Below are positions 7,064 to 53,438 of a stretch of DNA of 64,000 nucleotides, piece after piece; position 1 is the first letter of the stretch, and each line of letters opens with the position of its first letter. This DNA is from an uncultured Pseudomonadota bacterium. Its GTDB lineage: Bacteria > Pseudomonadota > Alphaproteobacteria > JACZXZ01. The stretch spans positions 192,001 through 256,000 of the forward strand of contig CAVVLJ010000020.1 in NCBI GenBank assembly GCA_963749075.1, written 5' to 3'. The notes beneath the pieces are model-generated. The model did no database searches. It saw only the letters and a program-made list of their open reading frames with translations, and was not told the DNA's origin. A program made the translations under genes and the position numbers.

Positions 7064-7915
7064 CTACTCCAATTCTATCAGCACCGGCTGGTGATCGGAG
7101 GCCGGCGTCTCGACGTCGACCGCGACCTCGCGCACGCGAGGGGCGAGGTCCTCCGTCACGAAGACGAAGTCGCGGCAATGGGCGCCTTGCGGCCATTGCG
7201 CGGCGTCGTGGATGCCGCAGGTGGGCGCATGGGGCACGGCAGAATGGGCGAGCGGCCAGGCGTCGCGGAAGGCCGGCACGCCGTCCGCGAAGCCGGCGAG
7301 CATGCGGCCATAGGCGGGCTCGCTCGTCTCGCAATTGAAGTCGCCGCAGACGAGGGCGCTCGCCGGGCGCGCCACGGTGCGGTAGGTGCCCTGGCTCAGG
7401 TCGGGCTTGTCGGGATGGAGGGCGCGCAGGGCCGCCTCGGCGTGGAGCTCGCGCAGCCGCTCGATCTGCGCCGCGCGGTGGGCCACGGAATAGAATTCGA
7501 GATGGGTGGTCAGCACGCGAAGCGGGCCGAAAGAGGTCTCGATCACCGCCTCGAGCGCCTGGCGCTGCATGCTGCGCCGGCCGGCCTCGGCCGGGCGCGG
7601 CAGCAGATGGGAGAGCGCCTGCAGGACGGGAAGGCGCGAGAGCACCATGTTGCCGAACTGGCGGCGGCGCCCGTCGGCTGCGGCGAAATCGATGGCCGGC
7701 CGGAAGATGGGCGCGTGATCCGGCAGCAGGCCGGCGAGGATAGCCGGCTGGTCGGCACCCTCGCCGTTGTCGGCCGCGGGGAAGTTGACAGCGATCTCCT
7801 GCAGGCAGAGCACGTCCGCTTGGCCGAGCGCACGCGCCGTCTCGACGATGCGGCGCAAGTCGACGATGCCGTCGCAGCCCTTGCCGCATTGGATGTTCCA
7901 GGTGATGAGCTTCAC
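7064..7915 (-). CDS. Endonuclease/exonuclease/phosphatase (EEP) family protein
   Basis: TWNI, LCLQE, GDFN, ASDH motifs. Confidence 0.92.
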   Translation of the reverse strand: MKLITWNIQCGKGCDGIVDLRRIVETARALGQADVLCLQEIAVNFPAADNGEGADQPAILAGLLPDHAPIFRPAIDFAAADGRRRQFGNMVLSRLPVLQALSHLLPRPAEAGRRSMQRQALEAVIETSFGPLRVLTTHLEFYSVAHRAAQIERLRELHAEAALRALHPDKPDLSQGTYRTVARPASALVCGDFNCETSEPAYGRMLAGFADGVPAFRDAWPLAHSAVPHAPTCGIHDAAQWPQGAHCRDFVFVTEDLAPRVREVAVDVETPASDHQPVLIELE

Positions 7916-7941
7916 TGCTTTGCGCCCCTCTTGCCGCGCCG

Positions 7942-9774
7942 TCAGCTTACAATACGCTGCCGCTTGCGGCCCGCCTCATAGGCGGCGCGCGCGGCGGCGA
8001 CCGCGGGGCGGCGCGAGGTCTCGGGCACCGGCACGTCCCACCAGGCGCCGCCCGCGGCCGTGCTCGCGGCGGGATCGGTCGCGATGACGATGACCATCGT
8101 GCGCGGCGCCGCCTTCGCCTCGGCGAGTGCGCTCTCGAGCTCGGCGATGCTCGCCACTTTCCGTGAAAGGGCGCCGAGGCTTGCGGCATGGGCCGCGAAA
8201 TCGACGCCGCTGCCGCCAGGAAAGAGATTGTTGAAGCCCTCGTCGCCGACGCTCGCTTGCAGGCGCTCGATGCAGCCGAAGCCGCCGTTGTCGAGCAGCA
8301 CGATGATGAGTTTCCGCCCCATCTTGACCGAGGTGGCGATCTCGGAGTTCATCATGAGATAGGAGCCGTCGCCGACCAGCACATAGACCTCGTGCTCGGG
8401 TGCCGCCATCTTGGCGCCGAGCCCGCCGGCGATCTCGTAGCCCATGCAGGAATAGCCGTACTCCACGTGATAGCTGCCGGCGCTGCGGCAGCGCCAGAGC
8501 TTGTGGAGCTCGCCTGGAAGGCCGCCCGCGGCGCCCACCACCAGGTCCGCGGGACCGGCGGCGCGGTTGACGGCGCCGAGCACCTGGGCGTCGCTCGGCA
8601 GCGGCGCGTTCGTGGCCGCGGTCGCCCGCGCTACCGCCGCGTTCCACGCGTCCGCGCGCTTCCTCGCCTTCTTGGTCCAGCCGGCGGGCGCGCGCCAGTC
8701 GCCGAGGCTTGCCGAGAGCGCCTCGAGCCCCTCGCGCGCATCCGAGACGAGCGGCAGGGCGCCGTGCTTCGCCGCATCGTAAGCCGCGGCATTGAGCTGG
8801 ACGAGCGTGGCGGCGGGGTTTTGGAAGAGGCTGCGCGAGGCCGTCGTGAAATCGGTGAGGCGCGTGCCGCAGGCGAGCACCAAGTCCGCCTCGGCGGCGA
8901 GCGCGTTGGCGGCCGTGCCGCCGGTGACGCCTATGGCACCCACGGAAGCGGCATGGTCCCAGGCAAGCGCCCCCTTGCCGGCCTGGGTCTCCGCCACGGG
9001 AACGCCGTGGCGCTCGGCGAATTTTGCCAGCGTGCCGCAGGCGAGCGCGTCATGCACGCCGCCGCCCGCGATGACGAGCGGCCGCCGCGCGCAGCGCACT
9101 GCCGCCGCCGCTTGGGCGAGCTCGCCCGCGTCCGGCGGCGGGCGGCGCGGGCGCCAGACGCGCTGCCGGAAGAACGGCTCCGGGTAGTCCCAGGCCTCGG
9201 CCTGCACGTCCTGCGGCAGCGCCAGGGTGACCGGGCCGCAGTCCGCCGGGTCGCTGAGGACGCGCATCGCCTGGGGCAGGCTCTCGAGGAGCTGCTCGGG
9301 CCTGAGGATGCGGTCCCACCAGCGCGACACCGGGCGGAAGCAGTCGTTGACCGAGACCGTGGGGTCGCCGAAACCCTCGATCTGCTGCAGCACCGGGTCC
9401 GGGCGCCGGCTCGCAAAGACGTCGCCGGGAAGGAGCAGCACCGGCAGGCGGTTGGCGTGGGCGAGGGCCGCCGCCGTCACCATGTTGGTAGCACCCGGCC
9501 CGATCGAGCTGGTGCAGGCCATCGCCCGGCGCCTGGCACTCGCCTTGGCGAAGGCGATCGCAGCAATGGCCATCGCCTGCTCGTTGTGGGCGCGGAAGGT
9601 CGGGAGCTCTCTCCGCGCGGCGTGGAGGGCGGTGCCCAGGCCCGCCACGTTGCCGTGGCCGAAGATCGCGAAGACGCCGGCGAAATAGGGCACCGACCTC
9701 CCGTCCATCTCGCTCCGCTGCGCTGCGATAAAGCGCACCAGCGCCTCAGCCATGGTGAGACGGACCGTGCGCAT
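7942..9774 (-). CDS. iolD: 3D-(3,5/4)-trihydroxycyclohexane-1,2-dione acylhydrolase
   Basis: IFGHGNVAG, HNEQAM, EYGYSCMGYE and TPP motif GDGSYLM. Confidence 0.95.
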   Translation of the reverse strand: MRTVRLTMAEALVRFIAAQRSEMDGRSVPYFAGVFAIFGHGNVAGLGTALHAARRELPTFRAHNEQAMAIAAIAFAKASARRRAMACTSSIGPGATNMVTAAALAHANRLPVLLLPGDVFASRRPDPVLQQIEGFGDPTVSVNDCFRPVSRWWDRILRPEQLLESLPQAMRVLSDPADCGPVTLALPQDVQAEAWDYPEPFFRQRVWRPRRPPPDAGELAQAAAAVRCARRPLVIAGGGVHDALACGTLAKFAERHGVPVAETQAGKGALAWDHAASVGAIGVTGGTAANALAAEADLVLACGTRLTDFTTASRSLFQNPAATLVQLNAAAYDAAKHGALPLVSDAREGLEALSASLGDWRAPAGWTKKARKRADAWNAAVARATAATNAPLPSDAQVLGAVNRAAGPADLVVGAAGGLPGELHKLWRCRSAGSYHVEYGYSCMGYEIAGGLGAKMAAPEHEVYVLVGDGSYLMMNSEIATSVKMGRKLIIVLLDNGGFGCIERLQASVGDEGFNNLFPGGSGVDFAAHAASLGALSRKVASIAELESALAEAKAAPRTMVIVIATDPAASTAAGGAWWDVPVPETSRRPAVAAARAAYEAGRKRQRIVS

Positions 9775-9819
9775 TCCTTGCCCTCCCCGCCCTATTGTTG
9801 TCTCTTCAATCCGCGCAAG

Positions 9820-9932
9820 CTCATCCTTCGAGACGCGATCCTGCGGATCGCTCCTCAGGATGAGGACCCGGATGTGGGTGTTTCGCCTCATCCTGAGGAG
9901 CAACCCGAGAGGGTTGCGTCTCGAAGGATGAG
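9820..9932. repeat. REP-like inverted doublet, family C
   Basis: CTCATCCTTCGAGACGC...GCTCCTCAGGATGAGG followed by an inverted copy CCTCATCCTGAGGAGC...GCGTCTCGAAGGATGAG. Confidence 0.85.
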
Positions 9933-9983
9933 GCGAAACCGGCCACCTCCGGTTCTTATCGAACTATAGCGGATGAGCCGGCC

Positions 9984-10970
9984 ATGATCAGCTTCTGCCT
10001 CTTCGGCGCCGGGCGCATCGGCGCCATCCACGCGGAGAACATCCGGCACCACCGGGAGGCACGGCTCCATACGGTGGTCGACGTGAATGGCGCCGCGGCC
10101 GCAGCACTTGCGGACCGCTACGGCGCCGCTGTCGGCACGCGCGAGGCAGCACTCGCCGACCCGGCGGTCGATGCCGTGCTCATCGCGAGCTCGACCGACA
10201 CGCACGCCGAGCTCGTCGAGGCGGCCTCTCGGGCGGGGAAGGCGATCTTCTGCGAGAAGCCGCTCGACCTCGACCGTGGCCGCGCCGCCGCTGCGGCCGC
10301 GGCCGCGGAACGCGCGGGCGTGCCCCTCATGCTCGGCTTCAACCGGCGCTTCGATCCCACCTTCGCGCGGCTCGAGCGCCAGCTCCGCTGTGGCCGCATC
10401 GGCCGGCTCGAGCTCCTCGCCATCACCAGCCGCGATCCCGCACCGCCGCCCATCGACTATGTGCGCGTCTCGGGCGGCCTCTTCCGCGACATGATGATCC
10501 ACGATTTCGACATGGCGCGCTGGCTCCTGGGCGAGGAGCCGGTCGAGGTCTTCGCCGCGGCGAGCGCCCTCATCGACCCGGCGATCGCCGCGGCGGGCGA
10601 CGTGGACACGGCACTCGTGACGCTCAGGACCGCCTCGGGCACGCTCTGCCAGATCTCCAACAGCCGGCGCGCCTCTTACGGCTACGACCAGCGCATCGAG
10701 GCGCACGGCGCCAAGGGGGCGCTCGCCGCAGGCAACGTGGCCGAGGGCACGCTCGCCTTCGCGAGCGCCGACGGCATCGTCGGCGACAAGCCGCTCCACT
10801 TCTTCCTCGAGCGCTATGCCGAGGCCTACCGCCGCGAGCTCGCTCACTTCGTGGCCGCCCTCGCGAGCGGCACCAGGCCGATGGTGGGCGGCTCGGACGG
10901 CGTGAAGGCGCTGGCGCTTGCCGAGGCGGCGCTCGCCTCGCTCGCGAGCGGACGCGCCGAGCGGCCGTGA
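9984..10970 (+). CDS. iolG: Inositol 2-dehydrogenase
   Basis: GAGRIG, FCEKP, GFNRRFDP, DMMIHDFD, YGYDQRIE; iol context. Confidence 0.92.
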   Translation: MISFCLFGAGRIGAIHAENIRHHREARLHTVVDVNGAAAAALADRYGAAVGTREAALADPAVDAVLIASSTDTHAELVEAASRAGKAIFCEKPLDLDRGRAAAAAAAAERAGVPLMLGFNRRFDPTFARLERQLRCGRIGRLELLAITSRDPAPPPIDYVRVSGGLFRDMMIHDFDMARWLLGEEPVEVFAAASALIDPAIAAAGDVDTALVTLRTASGTLCQISNSRRASYGYDQRIEAHGAKGALAAGNVAEGTLAFASADGIVGDKPLHFFLERYAEAYRRELAHFVAALASGTRPMVGGSDGVKALALAEAALASLASGRAERP

Positions 10971-36962: not shown

Positions 36963-37817
36963 ATGAGCGAGCGTCAGCGCTTGACCATTCCCGATTTGAG
37001 GAAGCGCAAGGCGGCCGGCGAGCGCGTCGTCATGGCCTCGATCACCGACTACATGATGGCGCAATGGGCCGAGCGCGGCGGCGTCGACATCGTGGCCATC
37101 GGCGACAGCCTGGCGATGATCACTTACGGCCATCCGAACACCCTCGCCATGACCGTCGACCAGATGATCGAGCATACCAAGGCGGTGATCCGAGGTGCGC
37201 CCAGCACCATGTCGCTGGTCGCCATGCCCTACGGCTCCTATGCCACGCCCGAGATCGCCGTCACCAACGCGCTCCGCCTCATGAAGGAGAGCGGCGTGGA
37301 CGCGGTCAAGCTGCAGGGCGGGCGCGAGAAGTTCGCCGTCATCAGGGCGGTCGCCCAAGCGGGCGTGCCCGTCATGAGCCACGTCGGCATGTGCCCCCAT
37401 TTCGTCCACACCTACGGCGGCTTCAAGCTCCAGGGGCGCACCGCCGAGGAGGCCATGCGCATCGTCGGCGACGCGCGCGCCATCGAGGAAGCCGGCGCCG
37501 TCGGCCTCGAGATCGAGGCAGTACCCCCCGAGGTGGGCGCCGCCGTCGAGGCCGCGGTCGGCATCTTCACCTTCTCGATCGGCGCCGGCGGTGCCGGCTC
37601 AGGCCAGCTCCTCCTCGGCGCCGACCTCATCGGCGCCTTCGACAACTTCAAGCCGAAGTTCGCCAAGCGCTACGGCAACCTGGCCGAGGTGGCGACGAGC
37701 GCCTTCGCCGCCTACGTCGCGGACGTGCGCGCCAAGAGCTTCCCCGGCGACGAGCATTGCTACCGCATGAAGCCCGAGGAGGCGGCGCGCTTGAGGGAGA
37801 TGCTGGCGCGCGGGTGA
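36963..37817 (+). CDS. PanB-family hydroxymethyltransferase, divergent paralogue 2
   Basis: IGDSLAM, HVGMCP, GGFKLQGR. Confidence 0.88.
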   Translation: MSERQRLTIPDLRKRKAAGERVVMASITDYMMAQWAERGGVDIVAIGDSLAMITYGHPNTLAMTVDQMIEHTKAVIRGAPSTMSLVAMPYGSYATPEIAVTNALRLMKESGVDAVKLQGGREKFAVIRAVAQAGVPVMSHVGMCPHFVHTYGGFKLQGRTAEEAMRIVGDARAIEEAGAVGLEIEAVPPEVGAAVEAAVGIFTFSIGAGGAGSGQLLLGADLIGAFDNFKPKFAKRYGNLAEVATSAFAAYVADVRAKSFPGDEHCYRMKPEEAARLREMLARG

Positions 37818-39896: not shown

Positions 39897-40167
39897 CGCG
39901 GCCCCCGCTCCAGCCTCGCCCGTCACGGCACGCCTGCGCATTTCCCGCTTGAGGGAGATGGCATGCGGCCCGCCGGCGCAAGACGGCCAGCGTCAGATTG
40001 CCGGCGCCAGATTAAAGGCCAGGCGGCGGCGCTGTCGACCGGCGAAACGGCGGTGCCGCGCGTTCGCCCCCCGTTCGCCTTCCCCGTTCGTCCTTGGCCG
40101 GCGCCGCACGGTTGCGCTAGGATGCGCCTGCCGTACCGGCCGTCCGGCGCACTACAGGAAGAGCCGC

Positions 40168-47320: not shown

Positions 47321-47556
47321 TCGGACGGGCTCTTCAGTCCCGGGCAGATTGCCAGCGCGCTGCGCCCGATCGCGAGATCTCCAGCAGTTTCTTCGCGGCG
47401 CAGATCTCCATCGGGCGCCGGCGTCATCACGGCAGGCACCGCCCGCCGCCGGTAGCATGCTCTCTCGCGGCACAGAGAGCAATCCCGCGCGTCGGTAATG
47501 GTACAGTTTGAATTTCTGGGTCTCTCGCGCCCCGCTCCCCTCGTGACCGGAGCCGT

Positions 47557-47575
47557 GCCATACTTAGAGTATGGC
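47557..47575. promoter_or_regulatory. Palindrome over an extended -10 and the start codon
   Basis: GCCATACT-TAG-AGTATGGC; TGcCATACT lies 6 nt before ATG 47571. Confidence 0.55.
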
Positions 47576-47795
47576 CATCAAGCGACTCAAACGTCCGCGC
47601 GACCCGCTCCAGCTCGCCAAGCTCATTGGTGATATTGCGACTGGGCAAGTTGCTGATAGGGCAGAAGATACCCGAAGCGCCGCCGCCGTCGAATTAGGCC
47701 AAAAAGGCGGCAAAGCGCGTGCAGCAAAATTGTCAAAAGAAAGACGAAAAGAGATCGCAAGTGCCGCAGCTCGGCGTAGATGGGGACATAAGTAA
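47571..47795 (+). CDS. Small basic KGG-motif protein at the transposon left end
   Basis: KRPRDPLQLAKLIGDIATG...LGQKGGKARAAKLSKERRKEIA. Confidence 0.8.
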   Translation: MAIKRLKRPRDPLQLAKLIGDIATGQVADRAEDTRSAAAVELGQKGGKARAAKLSKERRKEIASAAARRRWGHK

Positions 47796-47801
47796 TCTTG
47801 G

Positions 47802-48383
47802 TTAACTGCGCTTTGGGAGGAGCGGATTATCAGGTAAATTTGGAAGTGGCAGCGTCGGTATTACAAGTGCTGTGCCGGCCCCAAGACCGGGAAATGGGAA
47901 TAGCGGATTAGCAGCTCCCGCTGATTGTGGTTCCACCCGCAATGTTCCAAGTCTAATGATCTTATCGCCATAATCGGCGCGGACTTTAATTCGTCCCGCC
48001 TGAATCAAAATCATTGGTGACATAACAAACAGCGTGTTTATAGTGAAAAGCTCTGGCAAGTCTGGGTCAGGAGGCAGCGTAGTGGTCTTAAAAGTTTCGT
48101 CCACTGTCGCTTTATTAGCAGGAATTTCTCCGCCTACATTTGGTTTATCGGGGGCGTTACCGGGCAAGAAAATTTTGATTGTGATGCTCCAATCCCGATT
48201 TTCTGCCATTTTACGCGGTTCATTAAAGGTCGTCGCAATTCCGAACTTTGGCACCACCATTGGAAAAGCCGGCACGTAAATAACGGCGTTGTAAACGCCG
48301 ATGTAACTTGCCTTGTTACCAACCTCCGAACGAATGTCGTCACAAAAGATGGACGAGCCAAACGGTTCATCAAATTTGGACAT
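47802..48383 (-). CDS. DUF6941-like beta-rich protein
   Basis: IFCDDIRSEVGNKASYIGVY motif. Confidence 0.7.
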   Translation of the reverse strand: MSKFDEPFGSSIFCDDIRSEVGNKASYIGVYNAVIYVPAFPMVVPKFGIATTFNEPRKMAENRDWSITIKIFLPGNAPDKPNVGGEIPANKATVDETFKTTTLPPDPDLPELFTINTLFVMSPMILIQAGRIKVRADYGDKIIRLGTLRVEPQSAGAANPLFPFPGLGAGTALVIPTLPLPNLPDNPLLPKRS

Positions 48384-48387
48384 TTGT

Positions 48388-48840
48388 TCAGCCTGACGTA
48401 GGTGTCCCCAGCAGATCACTGTATGCAATGCCGGTGGCGCCCCTAGTGGTTAGCATTGCCGCGTTAGGACCCGTGATATAGATCACGGCTCCTGCTGATG
48501 ACGAGGATAACCAATCAGGGTGCCGATAATTGCGCGGAGGCTCCTCAAGGGGGTGGACGATACTGTATCCTGCTTCCGCATGCGAAATGGCAAAAAGCAG
48601 ATCGCTCAAGGTATCAAGGCCCCAATTGCCCGGCGCACCGATTAAACGACACACAACGTCTGGTCGCTTATTCATCCGACGCGCCAGTTCAGCCTGAGTA
48701 AGGCCGCTCTTCTTGAATTCATTCAGCACAAGATCATGCACGCGGCTCCTGTTCCTAGCCTGAAAATAGGCGAACTCCCAAGCCGGGATCGCCCCTGTTC
48801 CCGTGGGGCTAAACGGGCTCAAAGTTGGAGAGGTAGTCAT
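48388..48840 (-). CDS. XRE/HigA-like HTH protein with a C-terminal extension
   Basis: SGLTQAELARRMNKRPDVVCRLIGAPGNWGLDTLSDL. Confidence 0.8.
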   Translation of the reverse strand: MTTSPTLSPFSPTGTGAIPAWEFAYFQARNRSRVHDLVLNEFKKSGLTQAELARRMNKRPDVVCRLIGAPGNWGLDTLSDLLFAISHAEAGYSIVHPLEEPPRNYRHPDWLSSSSAGAVIYITGPNAAMLTTRGATGIAYSDLLGTPTSG

Positions 48841-49336
48841 TGAGGCTGGCTCCGTGGAACGGTTGATGTGGATGAAAGAGATTCCTCCATCTGGCCTTAC
48901 ATCGTTCGATCTCATCGCGCCAATCTTTGTCTTCAGCCAAATTCTCCCGAAAGTTAACGGTCAGCGCCACGAATAGATCTTTATCTGCAAAGCCACCAAG
49001 CACTCTGATCCCCGGTTTCGGATCAACGCATCGAATATCAAAAATGTCGTCCCTGGGCGGGTCTGTCCGTGCGACCCGGGTGGCCTTTGGCTTCTTATAG
49101 GGATCGTCGGCGACGGTTATGCGATCCCCCTGGGTCCAGGCATCCAAATAGGCTCGCATCTGCGTTAGCCGCCGTCCCTCTGTTGTCACCGGCCATGGCG
49201 GGTGTGCGACCTTATTGACCTCCTCGGAAACAAACAGCTCCCGTATCACCTTAGCGCTCGGAATGAGCGGCGGCAGGAAGAACAGCCGAGGAGGCACCTC
49301 GCTGACACGGTTATTGATTCCATCGCGTATTGACAT
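48809..49336 (-). CDS. Putative RelE/HigB-like toxin
   Basis: IFDIRCVDPKPGIRVLGGFADKDLFVAL beta-meander; overlaps the downstream HTH gene. Confidence 0.55.
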   Translation of the reverse strand: MSIRDGINNRVSEVPPRLFFLPPLIPSAKVIRELFVSEEVNKVAHPPWPVTTEGRRLTQMRAYLDAWTQGDRITVADDPYKKPKATRVARTDPPRDDIFDIRCVDPKPGIRVLGGFADKDLFVALTVNFRENLAEDKDWRDEIERCKARWRNLFHPHQPFHGASLNDYLSNFEPV

Positions 49337-49346
49337 ATAAGTCAAT
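49329..49346. promoter_or_regulatory. Putative operator overlapping the toxin start
   Basis: ATTGAC-N6-GTCAAT perfect inverted repeat. Confidence 0.6.
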
Positions 49347-49430
49347 GAGAGAAATATTAAAGGACCTTACGCGCGATGGTAGCGCAATGCAGCTAGTAGA
49401 GTCCCGCATACATTCGTCAAAAGAAATTGC

Positions 49431-49459
49431 TTGACGCTAAGCATAAAATGACAGATACT
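49431..49459 (+). promoter_or_regulatory. Sigma70-like promoter of the transposase (likely leaderless)
   Basis: TTGACG-N17-GATACT, 6 nt before ATG 49466. Confidence 0.6.
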
Positions 49460-49465
49460 AGGGGC

Positions 49466-50416
49466 ATGAACAAATTGTCCCCTGAGAAGCGCGCCCAAAT
49501 CCTCGGCATGATGGCCGAAGGGGTTTCGTTGCGGTCGATCACACGCCTAACTGGCGTGAGCCGGACAACCTCCCTCAAGCTGCTGGTCGATGTCGGCAAC
49601 GCCTTCTCGGACTATCAGGATCGCGCGCTTCGCAACTTTCCGTGCAAGCGCGTGAAGGTTGACGAAATTTGGGCGTTCGTCGGGATGAAGGCGAAGAACG
49701 TTCCCGAGGAAAGGAAGGGCGAATACGGCATCGGGGACGTTTGGACATGGACGGCAATTGATGCGGATACGAAGCTCGTGCCGTCCTGGTTCGTCGGGAA
49801 CCGCGATGCCGAGCACGCGCGGACCCTCCTAAGCGATCTTGCAGGCCGCATGGCCGGTCGCATCCAACTAACGTCAGACGCCATGCGCGCCTATCGGGAC
49901 GCGGTACATGACGCGTTCCTAGACGAGATCGACTATGCCCAGCTCGTCAAGATTTACGGCGAAGACCCGGAAAGTATGAAGGGGCGCTATAGTCCCGCCG
50001 AGCGCATCGGCTGCGAGCGCCAGAAGATCAGCGGGAACGCTGATCCAAAGCATATCAGCACTTCTCACGTCGAGCGGCAGAACCTCAATATCAGAATGGG
50101 GCTGCGCCGCTTCACGCGCTTGACCAATGCATTTTCAAAGAAGCTCGAAAACCATGTGCACGGCCTCGCCATCTACTTTATGTACTACAACTTCGTTCGC
50201 ATCCATCAAACATTGCGCGTCACCCCCGCGATGGCAGCCGGCGTAACCGACAAGCTTTGGGAGCTAAGCGATTTGGTTCGGATCGTGGAAGAATACGAGC
50301 GTGAGCCCGTCTCGGACGCCGACGCACCATCCGATATAGATCGCCTTTTGAGCGACGCCGACGGCTATATGCGACGCCCAGGACACCCCGACCAGCACGG
50401 CCCGCAGCGAACCTAA
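49466..50416 (+). CDS. IS1-family DDE transposase
   Basis: N-terminal HTH (EGVSLRSITRLTGVS), VDEIW, LTSD, HVERQN..R..RRFTRLT..FSKK. Confidence 0.9.
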   Translation: MNKLSPEKRAQILGMMAEGVSLRSITRLTGVSRTTSLKLLVDVGNAFSDYQDRALRNFPCKRVKVDEIWAFVGMKAKNVPEERKGEYGIGDVWTWTAIDADTKLVPSWFVGNRDAEHARTLLSDLAGRMAGRIQLTSDAMRAYRDAVHDAFLDEIDYAQLVKIYGEDPESMKGRYSPAERIGCERQKISGNADPKHISTSHVERQNLNIRMGLRRFTRLTNAFSKKLENHVHGLAIYFMYYNFVRIHQTLRVTPAMAAGVTDKLWELSDLVRIVEEYEREPVSDADAPSDIDRLLSDADGYMRRPGHPDQHGPQRT

Positions 50417-50465
50417 TCATCGGAGATCGCGAGGACCCGGATTTTTTCGGCGAATCGATCACAGA

Positions 50466-51332
50466 ATGCTGAAGCGGCTGTTAAAAGCTTTTTGGGTTGC
50501 CTTGTTCGCGTGTCTGGTGCTCGGATACGTCTCTCTGGTTTGGTATGCATCACAAGCGCCCGGGTCATCGCAATACGAACGCCGCACCTACCATACCAAT
50601 GAAAAAGCCGGCCAGCGCAACCCACCCCAAACCCTTTGGGAATGGGTGACGCATGACGCAATAGCTGTCTTCACTTTCTTCCTGGCCGCCTTTACCGGCG
50701 CGCTCTTCTGGGTTTCCATCATTGAAATGCGATACCTGAGACGCGCCGATAAGACGGCACGGAAACTCGCGAAAATCACCAAACAACAGACTGCTATTTT
50801 GGCCGCTCAAGCCGATATCGCATTGAAGCAGCATGAACTCGAGCGCTTGCAGTTTATCGCCGACAAGAGGCCGAGATTGCGCATCCGGAACGTTGTTGTG
50901 AGGCCGGCAAGCGTCACGGGCTATGAGCCGACCCTTTTCCATCCCGGACAATATGTCGGTGGTCAATGCTATATCGCCAACTCTGGAGGCATCGACGCTG
51001 TTGTTGTGGAGGCTCACTGTGAGGTCTTTGTGACTAACGTTCAGCTGCCAATGGAAAGGCCCTACGAAGGGAAAAACGGCAATTCGGCGATCCGCCCAAC
51101 GATTCCTCCCGGCGGTTCTGTGCCATTCCCATTTCAGAGCGATACCATTATCAGCGAACACCAGTCGCAGGCGGTCAGGAACGGCATTGGTTATCGGCTT
51201 TACTTGCTTGGATGGGTTGAATACGAAGACATCAAGGGAGTGCGAAGACGTACTGCGTTCTGCAGGAAATATGATGCCGCCACCGGTCGCTTCGCCGCAG
51301 TAGATGACCCCGATTACGAACACGAAGAATAG
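50466..51332 (+). CDS. Hypothetical membrane-anchored cargo protein
   Basis: Two TM segments, a coiled coil and a beta-rich C-terminal domain. Confidence 0.7.
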   Translation: MLKRLLKAFWVALFACLVLGYVSLVWYASQAPGSSQYERRTYHTNEKAGQRNPPQTLWEWVTHDAIAVFTFFLAAFTGALFWVSIIEMRYLRRADKTARKLAKITKQQTAILAAQADIALKQHELERLQFIADKRPRLRIRNVVVRPASVTGYEPTLFHPGQYVGGQCYIANSGGIDAVVVEAHCEVFVTNVQLPMERPYEGKNGNSAIRPTIPPGGSVPFPFQSDTIISEHQSQAVRNGIGYRLYLLGWVEYEDIKGVRRRTAFCRKYDAATGRFAAVDDPDYEHEE

Positions 51333-51388
51333 GATGGCGCCGCGCGACGTTCGGGGAATTCGGCATAATTGTCGAAACTGACCCACTA

Positions 51389-53294
51389 GTGCGCCAGGAA
51401 GCTGGCGTGATCCAGCCGGTGAAAGTCCGGCCCAGGTAAGGGGTAGCGCCCGCCTGGTAGCGAGTGTTGCGCTGTGGAAGGCAACGACCACGGCGAAGCG
51501 TACACAGCGATTGTGCGGGGTGGGCTATTGAGCCGCGTAAGCAGTAATGTCGGAGGGGCCGAGGCTTTTAGTGTAGCCGAAGGCAACATGTGCGGCGCCG
51601 CTATGCGAGGCGCCGTCGCCCTACCGAGGTCGAAGACCCCATCACGCACAAAGGGAGCCCGCCGGAACCTGGGAGATCCCACGTCCGGCCAGCGGCGACA
51701 AGCCGCCCTGGTCCGCATCGGGAAGGCGAGGAGCCGTAGCCGATGACGCACGGGCGCGGGAAGTCAGACTCCGCCATAGTAGCTGGGAAGCCGACGAACA
51801 AGGCCGGGCAATCGGTTGCGGAGCCGGTGGAGCGAAGGGCGGAGGCCAAGGGGAATGCGGGCCAGCACAGCACGCGCCGGGCACAGGACCGGGAAAGCGT
51901 GTCCCATGCGCTGGATCGCATACGACAAGCGGCAAGGCAAAGGAAGAAGGAACGGTTCACCTCGCTCTTCCACCATATCACCATCAGCCTGCTCCGGCTG
52001 GCGTTCTTCGCGCTCAAGCGAGACGCCATGCCCGGCGTAGACGGGTTGACATGGCAGGACTACGAGGCAGACCTCGAGTGCAAGCTCGAGGACCTGCACG
52101 CACGGGTCCGCCGGGGAGCGTATCGGGCACTGCCGTCCCGGCGACGGTACATACCGAAACCGGACGGCCGGCAGCGCCCGCTCGCGGTCGCCGCCCTCGA
52201 GGACAAGATCGTCCAACGGGCGACCATCGCGGTGCTGAACGCGATCTACGAGGAGGACTTCCTCGGGTTCTCGTATGGCTTCCGGCCACGGCGCGGCCAG
52301 CACGATGCGCTGGACGCACTGGCGGTCGGGCTCACCAGCAAGAAGGTGAACTACGTTCTCGATGCGGACATCCGGTCCTTTTTCGACGCGGTCGATCAAA
52401 CATGGCTCGTCCGCTTCTTGGAGAACCGGATCAGTGACCCGCGTATCATCCGCCTGATCCAGAAATGGCTCAAGGCGGGCATCCTGGAAGACGGGGTCGT
52501 GACGGTGAGTGAGAGGGGGACGGGACAGGGCTCGGTGGCATCACCGCTCCTTGCCAACGTCTACCTGCACTACGTCTTCGACCTCTGGGCCGAGCGCTGG
52601 CGACGGCGCGAGGCACAGGGCGATATGATCATCGTGCGCTATGCGGACGACATCGTTGTCGGCTTCGAGCGTGAGGCCGACGCCCGACGCTTCTGGGAGG
52701 CGATGCGGGAGCGGTTGCAGGAGTTCTCGCTGACGCTGCATCCGGAAAAGACCCGCCTGATCGAGTTTGGCCGCCATGCCGCGGCCGAGCGCAAGCAGCG
52801 CGGGCTCGGTAAACCGGAAACCTTCAACTTCCTAGGCTTCACCTTCCTCTGCGGTAAATCGCGCCGCGGGAACTTCCTCCTCAAGCGGAAGACCCGGCGT
52901 GACCGCATGGTGGCCAAGCTCAAGGAGGTAAAGGGCGAACTGCGGCGGCGGATGCATCAGCCCATCCCGGTGCAAGGGACGTGGCTGCGGCAGGTCGTCA
53001 CCGGCTTCTTTGGCTATCACGCAGTGCCGACAAACTTCCCGGCACTTGCGGCCTTCCGGCGCCATGTCACCGGCCTCTGGCGGCGCACGCTCCGGCGGCG
53101 CAGCCAGAAGGACGGCTCGACCTGGGGACGGATCGAGAAGCTGGCCGACGACTTTCTCCCAAAACCCCGCATCCTTCACCCCTGGCCGAGCAAGCGCTTC
53201 GCCGTCAAACACCCGAGGTGGGAGCCGTATGCGGGAAATCCGCCCGTACGGATCTGTGCGGGGGGCGCCCAGTAATGGGCGTCCCTACCGCGAT
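51389..53294 (+). mobile_element. Group II intron
   Basis: 5' GTGCG; domain V GAGCCGTATGCGGGAAATCCGCCCGTACGGATC; domain VI hairpin with bulged A; 3' end AT; encodes an RT. Confidence 0.93.
51743..53275 (+). CDS. ltrA: Group II intron reverse transcriptase/maturase, no HNH domain
   Basis: IPKPDGRQRPL, SYGFRP, DADIRSFFD, GQGSVASPLLANVYL, RYADD, FNFLGF. Confidence 0.95.
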   Translation: MTHGRGKSDSAIVAGKPTNKAGQSVAEPVERRAEAKGNAGQHSTRRAQDRESVSHALDRIRQAARQRKKERFTSLFHHITISLLRLAFFALKRDAMPGVDGLTWQDYEADLECKLEDLHARVRRGAYRALPSRRRYIPKPDGRQRPLAVAALEDKIVQRATIAVLNAIYEEDFLGFSYGFRPRRGQHDALDALAVGLTSKKVNYVLDADIRSFFDAVDQTWLVRFLENRISDPRIIRLIQKWLKAGILEDGVVTVSERGTGQGSVASPLLANVYLHYVFDLWAERWRRREAQGDMIIVRYADDIVVGFEREADARRFWEAMRERLQEFSLTLHPEKTRLIEFGRHAAAERKQRGLGKPETFNFLGFTFLCGKSRRGNFLLKRKTRRDRMVAKLKEVKGELRRRMHQPIPVQGTWLRQVVTGFFGYHAVPTNFPALAAFRRHVTGLWRRTLRRRSQKDGSTWGRIEKLADDFLPKPRILHPWPSKRFAVKHPRWEPYAGNPPVRICAGGAQ

Positions 53295-53438
53295 CCCGCG
53301 CGTCCGCCTTGGGATGGCGGCGGCTTCCGGCGATTGTCCGAAAAGCGTCATGGGCGGCCCTGCCGGAAAGCGGCCTCATGTCCGCAAACCAGCCATCGCA
53401 GGCATGGCGGCCGAAACCCCGCCCTGCCATGCGAGTTT

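Follow-up and report, generated by a model that had tools for sequence, protein, structure and literature searches.

A probable IS1-family transporter element with a conserved KGG-type gene and variable cargo in an uncultured alphaproteobacterium

We analyzed a stretch of 64,000 nucleotides (hereafter, the window) from an uncultured Pseudomonadota bacterium (GTDB lineage Bacteria; Pseudomonadota; Alphaproteobacteria; JACZXZ01; NCBI GenBank assembly GCA_963749075.1, contig CAVVLJ010000020.1, positions 192,001 to 256,000 of the forward strand), in which an insertion sequence (IS) element of the IS1 family carrying passenger genes had been predicted. The element extends over positions 47494-53296 of the window and comprises 3,897 bp once a group II intron is subtracted, in agreement with the original prediction of about 3.9 kb. 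From left to right, it contains the gene for a KGG-type small protein on the plus strand, three open reading frames (ORFs) on the minus strand, the transposase gene on the plus strand and a plus-strand ORF for a 288-amino-acid (aa) protein; the ORFs and the protein family scans agree with the predicted layout, including the single-ORF transposase and the three-gene minus-strand module. The features of the locus, in window coordinates, are the following.

47486..47493: left copy of the 8-bp target-site duplication (TSD), CGCGCGTC; an identical octamer lies directly outside both ends
47494..47515, plus strand: left terminal inverted repeat (IRL), GGTAATGGTACAGTTTGAATTT, starting with GGTAATG; 17 of the 19 specified consensus positions matched
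47571..47795, plus strand: small basic protein of the KGG type, 74 aa, encoded by a core gene that is conserved throughout the lineage
47802..48428, minus strand: cargo gene 3, DUF6941 protein, 208-aa ORF (PF22091, E 1.5e-7)
48388..48915, minus strand: cargo gene 2, XRE-type helix-turn-helix (HTH) protein, 175-aa ORF, putative antitoxin (phrog_1373, transcriptional regulator, E 4e-6)
48809..49345, minus strand: cargo gene 1, putative toxin of 175/178 aa with a probable HigB/RelE-like fold (structural model with predicted local distance difference test (pLDDT) score 95 and predicted template modeling (pTM) score 0.91)
49427..50416, plus strand: single-ORF IS1-family DDE transposase; likely start ATG at 49466, 316 aa (329 aa from 49427)
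50466..51332, plus strand: right-side cargo, 288-aa putative membrane protein with a pair of hydrophobic helices near the N-terminus (judged by eye)
51367..51388, minus strand: positions 3-24 of the right terminal inverted repeat (IRR), whose tip is severed by the intron
51389..53294, plus strand: group II intron, 1,906 bp, starting with GTGCG and located 2 bp inside the IRR tip, between repeat positions 2 and 3
51743-53275, plus strand: reverse transcriptase (RT)/maturase ORF (TIGR04416, 334 bits, cut-off 300)
53295..53296, minus strand: terminal two bases of IRR, CC (GG on the other strand), parted from the rest of the repeat by the intron
53297..53304: right copy of the 8-bp TSD, CGCGCGTC; same basis as the left copy

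The limits of the element are defined by terminal inverted repeats that begin with GGnnnTG and by the duplicated octamer. When positions 51389-53294 are read out, the right end of the element becomes ...AAACTGACCCACTA followed by CC; the reverse complement of this sequence is GGTAGTGGGTCAGTTTCGAC, which begins with GGTAGTG (GGTAGTGGGTCAGTTT). The IRL and the restored IRR are identical at 13 of the first 17 positions and at 14 of the first 22, and the consensus of the ends across the lineage is GGTAGTG-NNN-CAGTTTGAA(A/T)TT, with 19 specified positions. The imperfect 17-bp repeats and the 8-bp flanking duplication that had been proposed for this locus are thus both present, the former matching a family consensus that recurs in 58 relatives (see below) and the latter being CGCGCGTC on both sides. 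The degenerate inverted repeat pattern is matched twice in the window, compared to 0.02 matches expected from shuffled sequences, and the GC content is 0.46-0.60 within the element vs 0.62-0.77 in the flanks. In a control, 16,646 pairs of GGNNNTG...CANNNCC motifs located 0.7-8 kb apart in the window yielded one unrelated pair with identical 8-bp flanks; because this pair passed, the combination of GGNNNTG ends with an identical 8-bp flank is insufficient alone, and the family consensus is the strong evidence. The false positive of the control is a 15-bp direct repeat, CGCTTGAGGGAGATG, at 37788-37802 and 39937-39951, that encloses about 2.1 kb with a hydrolase-like and a monooxygenase-like gene (judged by eye) and shows no IS features.

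The affiliation of the element with the IS1 family, also part of the original prediction, is borne out by the transposase as well as by the ends and the TSD. The transposase matches the DDE_Tnp_IS1 family of Pfam (PF03400) with a score of 33.8 bits (cut-off 24.1), and comparison of a profile built from the window transposase and 20 homologues with InsB of Escherichia coli K-12 IS1A using hhalign gave a probability of 93.5% (E 2.3e-7). In this alignment, the DEIW, TSD and ERQN motifs of the window transposase correspond to the DEQW, TDG and ERHN motifs of InsB that contain the D, D and E residues. In a protein database search, all 8,000 of the 8,000 scored candidates were significant, and many of these are named 'IS1 family transposase' at the source. 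Target duplications of IS1-family elements are 8-9 bp in length, and the window element combines the InsB-homologous transposase with GGnnnTG ends (GGTAATG and GGTAGTG) and an 8-bp TSD. The classical IS1 group is characterized by the insA and insB' frames that are joined by -1 frameshifting and by a length of about 0.74-1.2 kb, whereas here there is one open frame of 316/329 aa and the length is 3,897 bp without the intron. In addition, both in the window and in the relatives, genes unrelated to transposition are located inside the inverted repeats and inside the target duplication, the defining trait of a transporter IS.

To place the element in an evolutionary context, we compared it with 84 related loci, of which 4 come from plasmids and 80 from genome contigs. 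The genome loci are the best 80 of at least 581 confirmed relatives (601 matched stretches) that were detected with the transposase profile in one genome per species, and show 52-65% identity. The relatives are found in Alpha- and Gammaproteobacteria, 'delta proteobacteria', Acidobacteriota, Nitrospirota, Planctomycetota, Chloroflexota, Bacteroidota, Verrucomicrobiota and other taxa. Each of the four full-length plasmid homologues, from Mesorhizobium loti, Hoeflea, Methylocapsa and Acidiphilium, is preceded by GGTAGTG..(T)CAGTTTGAAATT far upstream of the transposase and followed by an inverted copy downstream; the respective elements are 3,370, 4,224, 3,125 and 2,634 bp long, and three of the four are flanked by a perfect 8-bp duplication. 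With each position scored against the consensus and at least 15 of the 19 specified bases required, both ends were identified in 58 of the 84 loci (4/4 plasmid and 54/80 genome loci). A perfect 8-bp TSD flanks 46 of these 58 elements, and at least 7 of the 8 positions agree in 50; the duplicated sequences at the different sites are unrelated to each other. Lengths of the paired relatives range from 1,817 to 4,969 bp, with a median of 3,147 bp. The left tip and the transposase are separated by over 500 bp in 56 of the 58 (median 1,856 bp), and the transposase and the right tip in 27 (median 348 bp). Among the 116 arms, positions 1-7 (GGTAGTG) and 11-19 (CAGTTTGAA) are nearly invariant, and positions 8-10 vary (GGT, TCT, GTA, TAT and others), yet 55 of the 58 elements have the same triplet in both arms. 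Using the ends of the element itself as the query, no inner IRL was detected beyond shuffled controls in the 220 bp upstream of the transposase. Given that the 58 paired relatives span the cargo and that there is no inner end beyond the shuffles, the repeats that bound the homologous transposases include the cargo, as the original prediction implied.

Between the loci, only the transposase region aligns (64-78% identity), and a DNA search of plasmids with the whole element matched the transposase part alone (64-76% identity). The TSDs that flank complete elements at different sites in 46 of the 58 cases suggest that the complete unit transposes. Two further observations concern the architecture of individual relatives. 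In nine of these (L016, L018, L037, L051, L060, L061, L068, L076 and L082), a GCATA(A/T)nGGTCAGT(A/T)TG motif that includes the inner half of the terminal repeat, GGTCAGTTTG, is located 15-70 bp upstream of the transposase start, and could be a transposase operator; none was seen in the window. In L016, a transposase of the Mutator family (IS256-type) is nested in the right arm (L016:11511-12821) and accounts for part of the 4.6-kb length of this element.

A second conserved gene, besides that of the transposase, is the KGG gene. A homologue is present in 58 of the 59 elements (the window and 57 of the 58 paired relatives, the exception being L059), and in 55 of the 58 carriers it is encoded on the transposase strand, no more than 700 bp from the left tip (the exceptions are L017, L037 and L040); in 38 elements, the gene ends within 365 bp of this tip. 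L057 shows the bare arrangement in which the KGG gene is directly followed by the transposase. Pairwise identities of the KGG proteins correlate with those of the transposases (Spearman 0.29), and none of the 999 permutations gave a value as high; this comparison included the window and covered 50 of the 58 KGG carriers, 8 elements being dropped for a stop codon in the range, which for the 4 plasmid loci among them is the terminal stop. Because the KGG gene is present in 58 of the 59 elements and its identities track those of the transposase, it is a core gene of the lineage rather than a passenger. Hence the proposal that passengers lie on both sides of the transposase holds for the three-gene module on the left and the membrane protein gene on the right, but not for the KGG gene. 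In a subgroup of 17 elements (L001-L004, L082 and others), the KGG gene starts about 200 bp deeper from the left end, and several examined members of this subgroup contain an extra small ORF (62-85 aa) ahead of it.

The KGG family is large and almost devoid of annotation. The 1,534 close homologues of the window protein are all unnamed or 'hypothetical', and the profile search retrieved 16,664 cluster representatives at E <= 0.001, 4,878 of these at E <= 1e-10. The only name given in the Atlas is an automatic one, 'Histone H1 family protein', and the PHROG library yielded one weak match, to phrog_2384, with no assigned function. The structural model contains three helices (pLDDT 85, pTM 0.44). 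The KGG protein was also considered as an InsA homologue, and this candidate was rejected (hhalign probability 0.06% vs IS1 InsA). By analogy with insA of IS1, which the position, size and orientation of the KGG gene recall, its product may be a regulatory or accessory DNA-binding factor of transposition; against such a role counts the outcome of the family and structure searches, in which there was no match in Pfam, NCBIfam or PADLOC, no sequence match in the Protein Data Bank (PDB) and no Foldseek match to PDB at E <= 0.001. In two cargo proteins with a P63C domain, L023:8918-9892 and L032:8796-9887 (both on the minus strand), an N-terminal segment of about 30 residues resembles the C-terminal KGG motif (ARA..LS.E.R..IA..AA..RW; E 1e-7 to 9e-9). 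This motif appears to represent a small domain that is mobile.

In the minus-strand module of the window element, the gene closest to the transposase is that for the 175/178-aa protein. The family of this protein has 39 members, each of them hypothetical and most of them encoded on contigs of 1-8 kb, and the protein has no sequence-family match in the libraries scanned. The best Foldseek matches of its structural model are HigB toxins, namely 6af4_C (probability 1.00, E 3.4e-3), 8a0x_C and 7awk, which come from Streptococcus pneumoniae, Vibrio cholerae and Mycobacterium tuberculosis. The HTH gene is adjacent, co-oriented and downstream, as in higBA-like pairs. Homology of the HTH ORF with other proteins begins at M26, so that the start is probably at 48840; the protein has a weak PADLOC match (PDC-M64C, E 2.8e-4) and is 34-46% identical to HTH proteins of L036, L013, L066, L009 and L019, those of L009 and L066 being assigned in Pfam to HTH_3 and that of L013 to HTH_26, with those of L036 and L019 falling in no family. 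The 178-aa protein, in turn, clusters with ORF products of L009, L013, L036 and L066, and in each of these the HTH gene follows directly. The entire three-gene module, including DUF6941, recurs in L036 and the two-gene core in L009, L013 and L066; DUF6941 homologues with 31-36% identity are encoded in L036 and L076. Given the resemblance of the model to HigB toxins and the HTH gene downstream, the pair most likely is a putative higBA-like type II toxin-antitoxin (TA) pair. The similarity of the model to HigB is modest (template modeling (TM) score 0.39-0.57, with no Foldseek match at E <= 0.001), which speaks against this assignment. The 288-aa protein on the right side has no family in four libraries (Pfam, NCBIfam, PADLOC and PHROG), falls only into hypothetical clusters in the Atlas, and is a singleton among the cargo of the 59 elements. 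As a whole, the cargo of the window element may act as an addiction or defense module.

The cargo catalogue across the lineage confirms that the slots are variable, as the original prediction had it. ORFs of at least 60 aa, chosen greedily in the 59 elements, amount to 194 cargo ORFs that fall into 149 similarity clusters, 134 of which are singletons. Among the ORFs of at least 90 aa, those between the KGG gene and the transposase number 73 on the minus and 30 on the plus strand, and those to the right of the transposase number 26 on the plus and 15 on the minus strand. The 58 relatives contribute 141 ORFs of this size, most of which had no family in a Pfam scan. One recurrent cargo is an XRE-HTH domain fused to Peptidase_M78 (ImmA/IrrE-like), a similarity cluster represented in 11 elements, 10 of which also encode a partner of about 160 aa; in three cases the fusion occurs with a HigB-like toxin. 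Further families include PIN, PemK/MazF, Gp49, SocA-Panacea, and MqsA with a SecB-like protein. Four elements encode N6_N4 methylases (N6_N4_Mtase), two of these fused to Mrr_cat; an AbiEii-like AAA_21 ATPase and a Schlafen/AlbA_2 protein were also identified, along with proteases of the SDH type (3) and one Clp protease, and with Bro-N, P63C, FRG, a ParA-like protein and several DUFs. Judging by these family assignments, the portion of the cargo that can be classified is dominated by TA, methylase/nuclease and protease-type genes.

Taken together, these observations make it highly probable that a transporter IS (unit transposon) belonging to the IS1 family occupies positions 47494-53296. The single-ORF DDE transposase would recognize the terminal inverted repeats of about 22 bp and move everything between them, and staggered cuts 8 bp apart in the target would have duplicated CGCGCGTC. 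The target lies between an NfeD-like gene (minus strand; a weak match, E 1.3e-3) with an adjoining SPFH/Band_7 gene (minus strand; E 2e-32) on one side and an ABC ATPase gene (plus strand; E 3e-28) on the other; the insertion point lies in the region of the divergent promoters that serve the nfeD-SPFH genes and the ABC exporter, as the flanking genes confirm for the predicted site, so that the insertion may alter the expression of both operons. Across the lineage, two genes are conserved, the KGG gene just inside the left end and the transposase gene, and there are two cargo bays, the main one between these genes and an optional one after the transposase. In the window element, the main bay holds, reading away from the transposase, the putative toxin with the probable HigB-like fold, the putative XRE-HTH antitoxin and the DUF6941 protein, and the right bay the putative membrane protein.

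Several findings fit this interpretation poorly. The match of the transposase to the IS1 model of NCBIfam (NF033558; E 9.6e-20, 71 bits) is below the cut-off of 100 bits. A second end was not detectable in 26 of the 84 loci, 25 of which show one end; contig ends are limiting for 11 of the 26, and 15 are left unexplained. Within the matches listed, no two loci proved to carry nearly identical copies of an element at different sites. An empty insertion site was not seen either, although no search aimed at it was made. The two arms of the window element agree at 14 of 22 positions, compared to a lowest value of 15 among the 58 relatives, and the variable triplet is discordant (GTA on the left, GGT on the right), in contrast to the concordance in 55 of the 58. 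The low agreement of the arms, together with the one unrelated pair in the window with identical 8-bp flanks, which indicates that this criterion alone can mislead, could be taken to mean that a compact IS1-type IS resides among unrelated neighbors, with outer repeats and an octamer that match by chance and with 'cargo' that is part of the chromosome or a separate island. We consider this very improbable because consensus ends enclose the KGG gene, the cargo and the transposase in 58 relatives, of which 46 have perfect TSDs, no repeat-like site adjoins the transposase beyond shuffled controls, and the low GC content extends across the entire 3.9 kb. The possibility that the locus is a genomic islet generated by site-specific recombination, with the transposase as a passenger, appears more remote still. 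It derives from the fact that the direct repeat flanking the element is actually 12 bp rather than 8 bp long (ATCCCGCGCGTC, at 47482-47493 and 53293-53304) and could represent an attachment site. The four extra bases on the right, however, are the last two bases of the intron and the tip of the IS and hence are not target sequence, so the extension is coincidental; moreover, there is no integrase or recombinase gene within the element, and the 8-bp duplications of the relatives differ from site to site, a signature of transposition rather than of an attachment site.

The other two alternatives would refine rather than replace the transporter IS interpretation or address its biological meaning. 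The arms of the window element are less alike than those of any relative and contain unlike triplets, which suggests a recombinant origin before the last jump: a left part consisting of a GTA-type IRL, the KGG gene, the cargo and the transposase would have been joined, by homologous recombination or nested insertion, to a right part consisting of the 288-aa gene and a GGT-type IRR that came from another sub-lineage. The relatives that are closest in the KGG protein and the transposase (L009, L008, L005 and L013) include GTA and TAT types, and the right-side gene is a singleton, both compatible with such a history, which nevertheless we regard as tentative: the perfect TSD indicates at least one transposition in which the present ends cooperated, 3 relatives also have discordant triplets, and no donor of the right part was found. 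The notion that the cargo bay is a phage-defense hotspot, in which the three-gene module and its counterparts would protect the host and thereby maintain the elements, likewise strikes us as rather doubtful. It finds encouragement in the cargo of the relatives, with methylase-Mrr fusions, AbiEii-like AAA_21, Schlafen/AlbA_2, the SDH protease, HigB, PIN, PemK and Panacea, and in the element of the Methylocapsa plasmid (L003), which adjoins genes annotated as a Shedu nuclease and a UvrD-helicase/AAA ATPase. The genes of the window, however, have no system-level PADLOC match, only the weak HTH match (E 2.8e-4), most of the cargo belongs to no family, and the TA pairs are equally well explained as addiction or stabilization modules, as proposed for Tn3-family transposons (PMC7157771, PMC12548467). 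Of the hotspot that had been suggested originally, what survives across the lineage is the abundance of TA, methylase/nuclease and protease-type cargo; for the window itself, a defensive role is at most suggested by gene content. The neighborhood of L003 (around 1455-2633 and 7268-10404) also contains an IS5 and resembles a defense island.

The history of the copy in the window appears to have continued after the transposition of the transporter IS. The insert within the IRR contains the ribozyme domains of a group II intron, D1-D4 (Rfam RF02005, 51422-51639, 164 bits, cut-off 49, E 2e-48) and D5-D6 (RF00029, 53220-53294, 50.3 bits, cut-off 40), along with an intron-encoded RT/maturase. There are no other introns within the window, and among the 85 loci examined, only the window contains an intron inside such a terminal repeat. 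Because the duplication flanks the composite of element and intron, the intron is later than the transposition, and it would have retrohomed 2 bp inside the right tip after the element had inserted. Position 1 of the repeat is G in all 116 arms and position 2 is G in 115 of the 116. Given that this nearly invariant terminal GG now lies 1.9 kb from the binding region of the repeat, the intron probably immobilizes the element, and the copy in the window is probably no longer mobile. A loop in domain I of the intron, UUUUAGUGU (about 51566-51575), can, as judged by eye, pair with the terminal CACUA pentamer of the upstream exon in a contact resembling that between exon-binding site 1 and intron-binding site 1 (EBS1-IBS1).

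The exact ends, the consensus and a hallmark gene are now available for a very common but poorly annotated type of small cargo transposon, whose genes are mostly labeled 'hypothetical' or 'histone H1' and which breaks metagenome assemblies. These markers permit automatic detection of the elements, so that their cargo can serve as an inventory of mobile TA and conflict genes, and the KGG protein becomes a concrete candidate for a new transposition accessory factor. More speculatively, and with considerable reservation, the KGG protein could be an unrecognized, obligatory accessory factor of a cosmopolitan IS1 sub-family in which the KGG and transposase genes frame a bay that swaps conflict genes. 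If so, TA and restriction-modification genes would be exchanged in this bay, perhaps by recombination between the two conserved genes, and the lineage would be a small-scale shuttle of defense and addiction genes across at least 8 phyla, with a role like that of the cargo regions in Tn7-like and Tn3-family transposons. The family to which the KGG protein belongs comprises about 16,700 protein clusters without a Pfam entry or a known fold.

Among the known systems, IS1 of E. coli (IS1A) shares with the window element the homologous DDE core, the GGnnnTG ends (GGTGATG and GGTAATG in IS1A) and a short target duplication of fixed length. IS1A is 768 bp long, expresses its transposase by frameshifting between insA and insB' and is free of cargo, in contrast to the window element with its length of 3.9 kb, single-ORF transposase, four passenger genes and KGG gene. 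ISfinder includes a subgroup of single-ORF IS1 elements of the ISMhu11 type that reach about 4.6 kb; the agreement with the lineage described here is limited to the single ORF, the presence of terminal inverted repeats and lengths well above 1 kb, the 1.8-5.0 kb found here fitting the size range of the subgroup. In Tn3-family transposons, as described in PMC7157771 (cited in PMC12548467), TA pairs are located within the transposition module. The window element resembles these in that TA genes lie beside the transposition genes in a unit transposon, and its lineage differs in the family of the transposase, in having no resolvase or res site, in the much smaller size and in the cargo that changes from copy to copy. 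In the main texts of the literature searched, we found no description of an IS1 lineage in which a KGG-type gene is conserved and the content of a cargo bay varies. Transporter IS, that is, IS derivatives with passenger genes located between the inverted repeats and moving together with them, are a recognized category (PMC3129680, PMC9330008 and PMC7986276). In the lineage analyzed here, cargo is the rule throughout, and a conserved second gene borders the cargo bay; it is this lineage-wide architecture that may be new.

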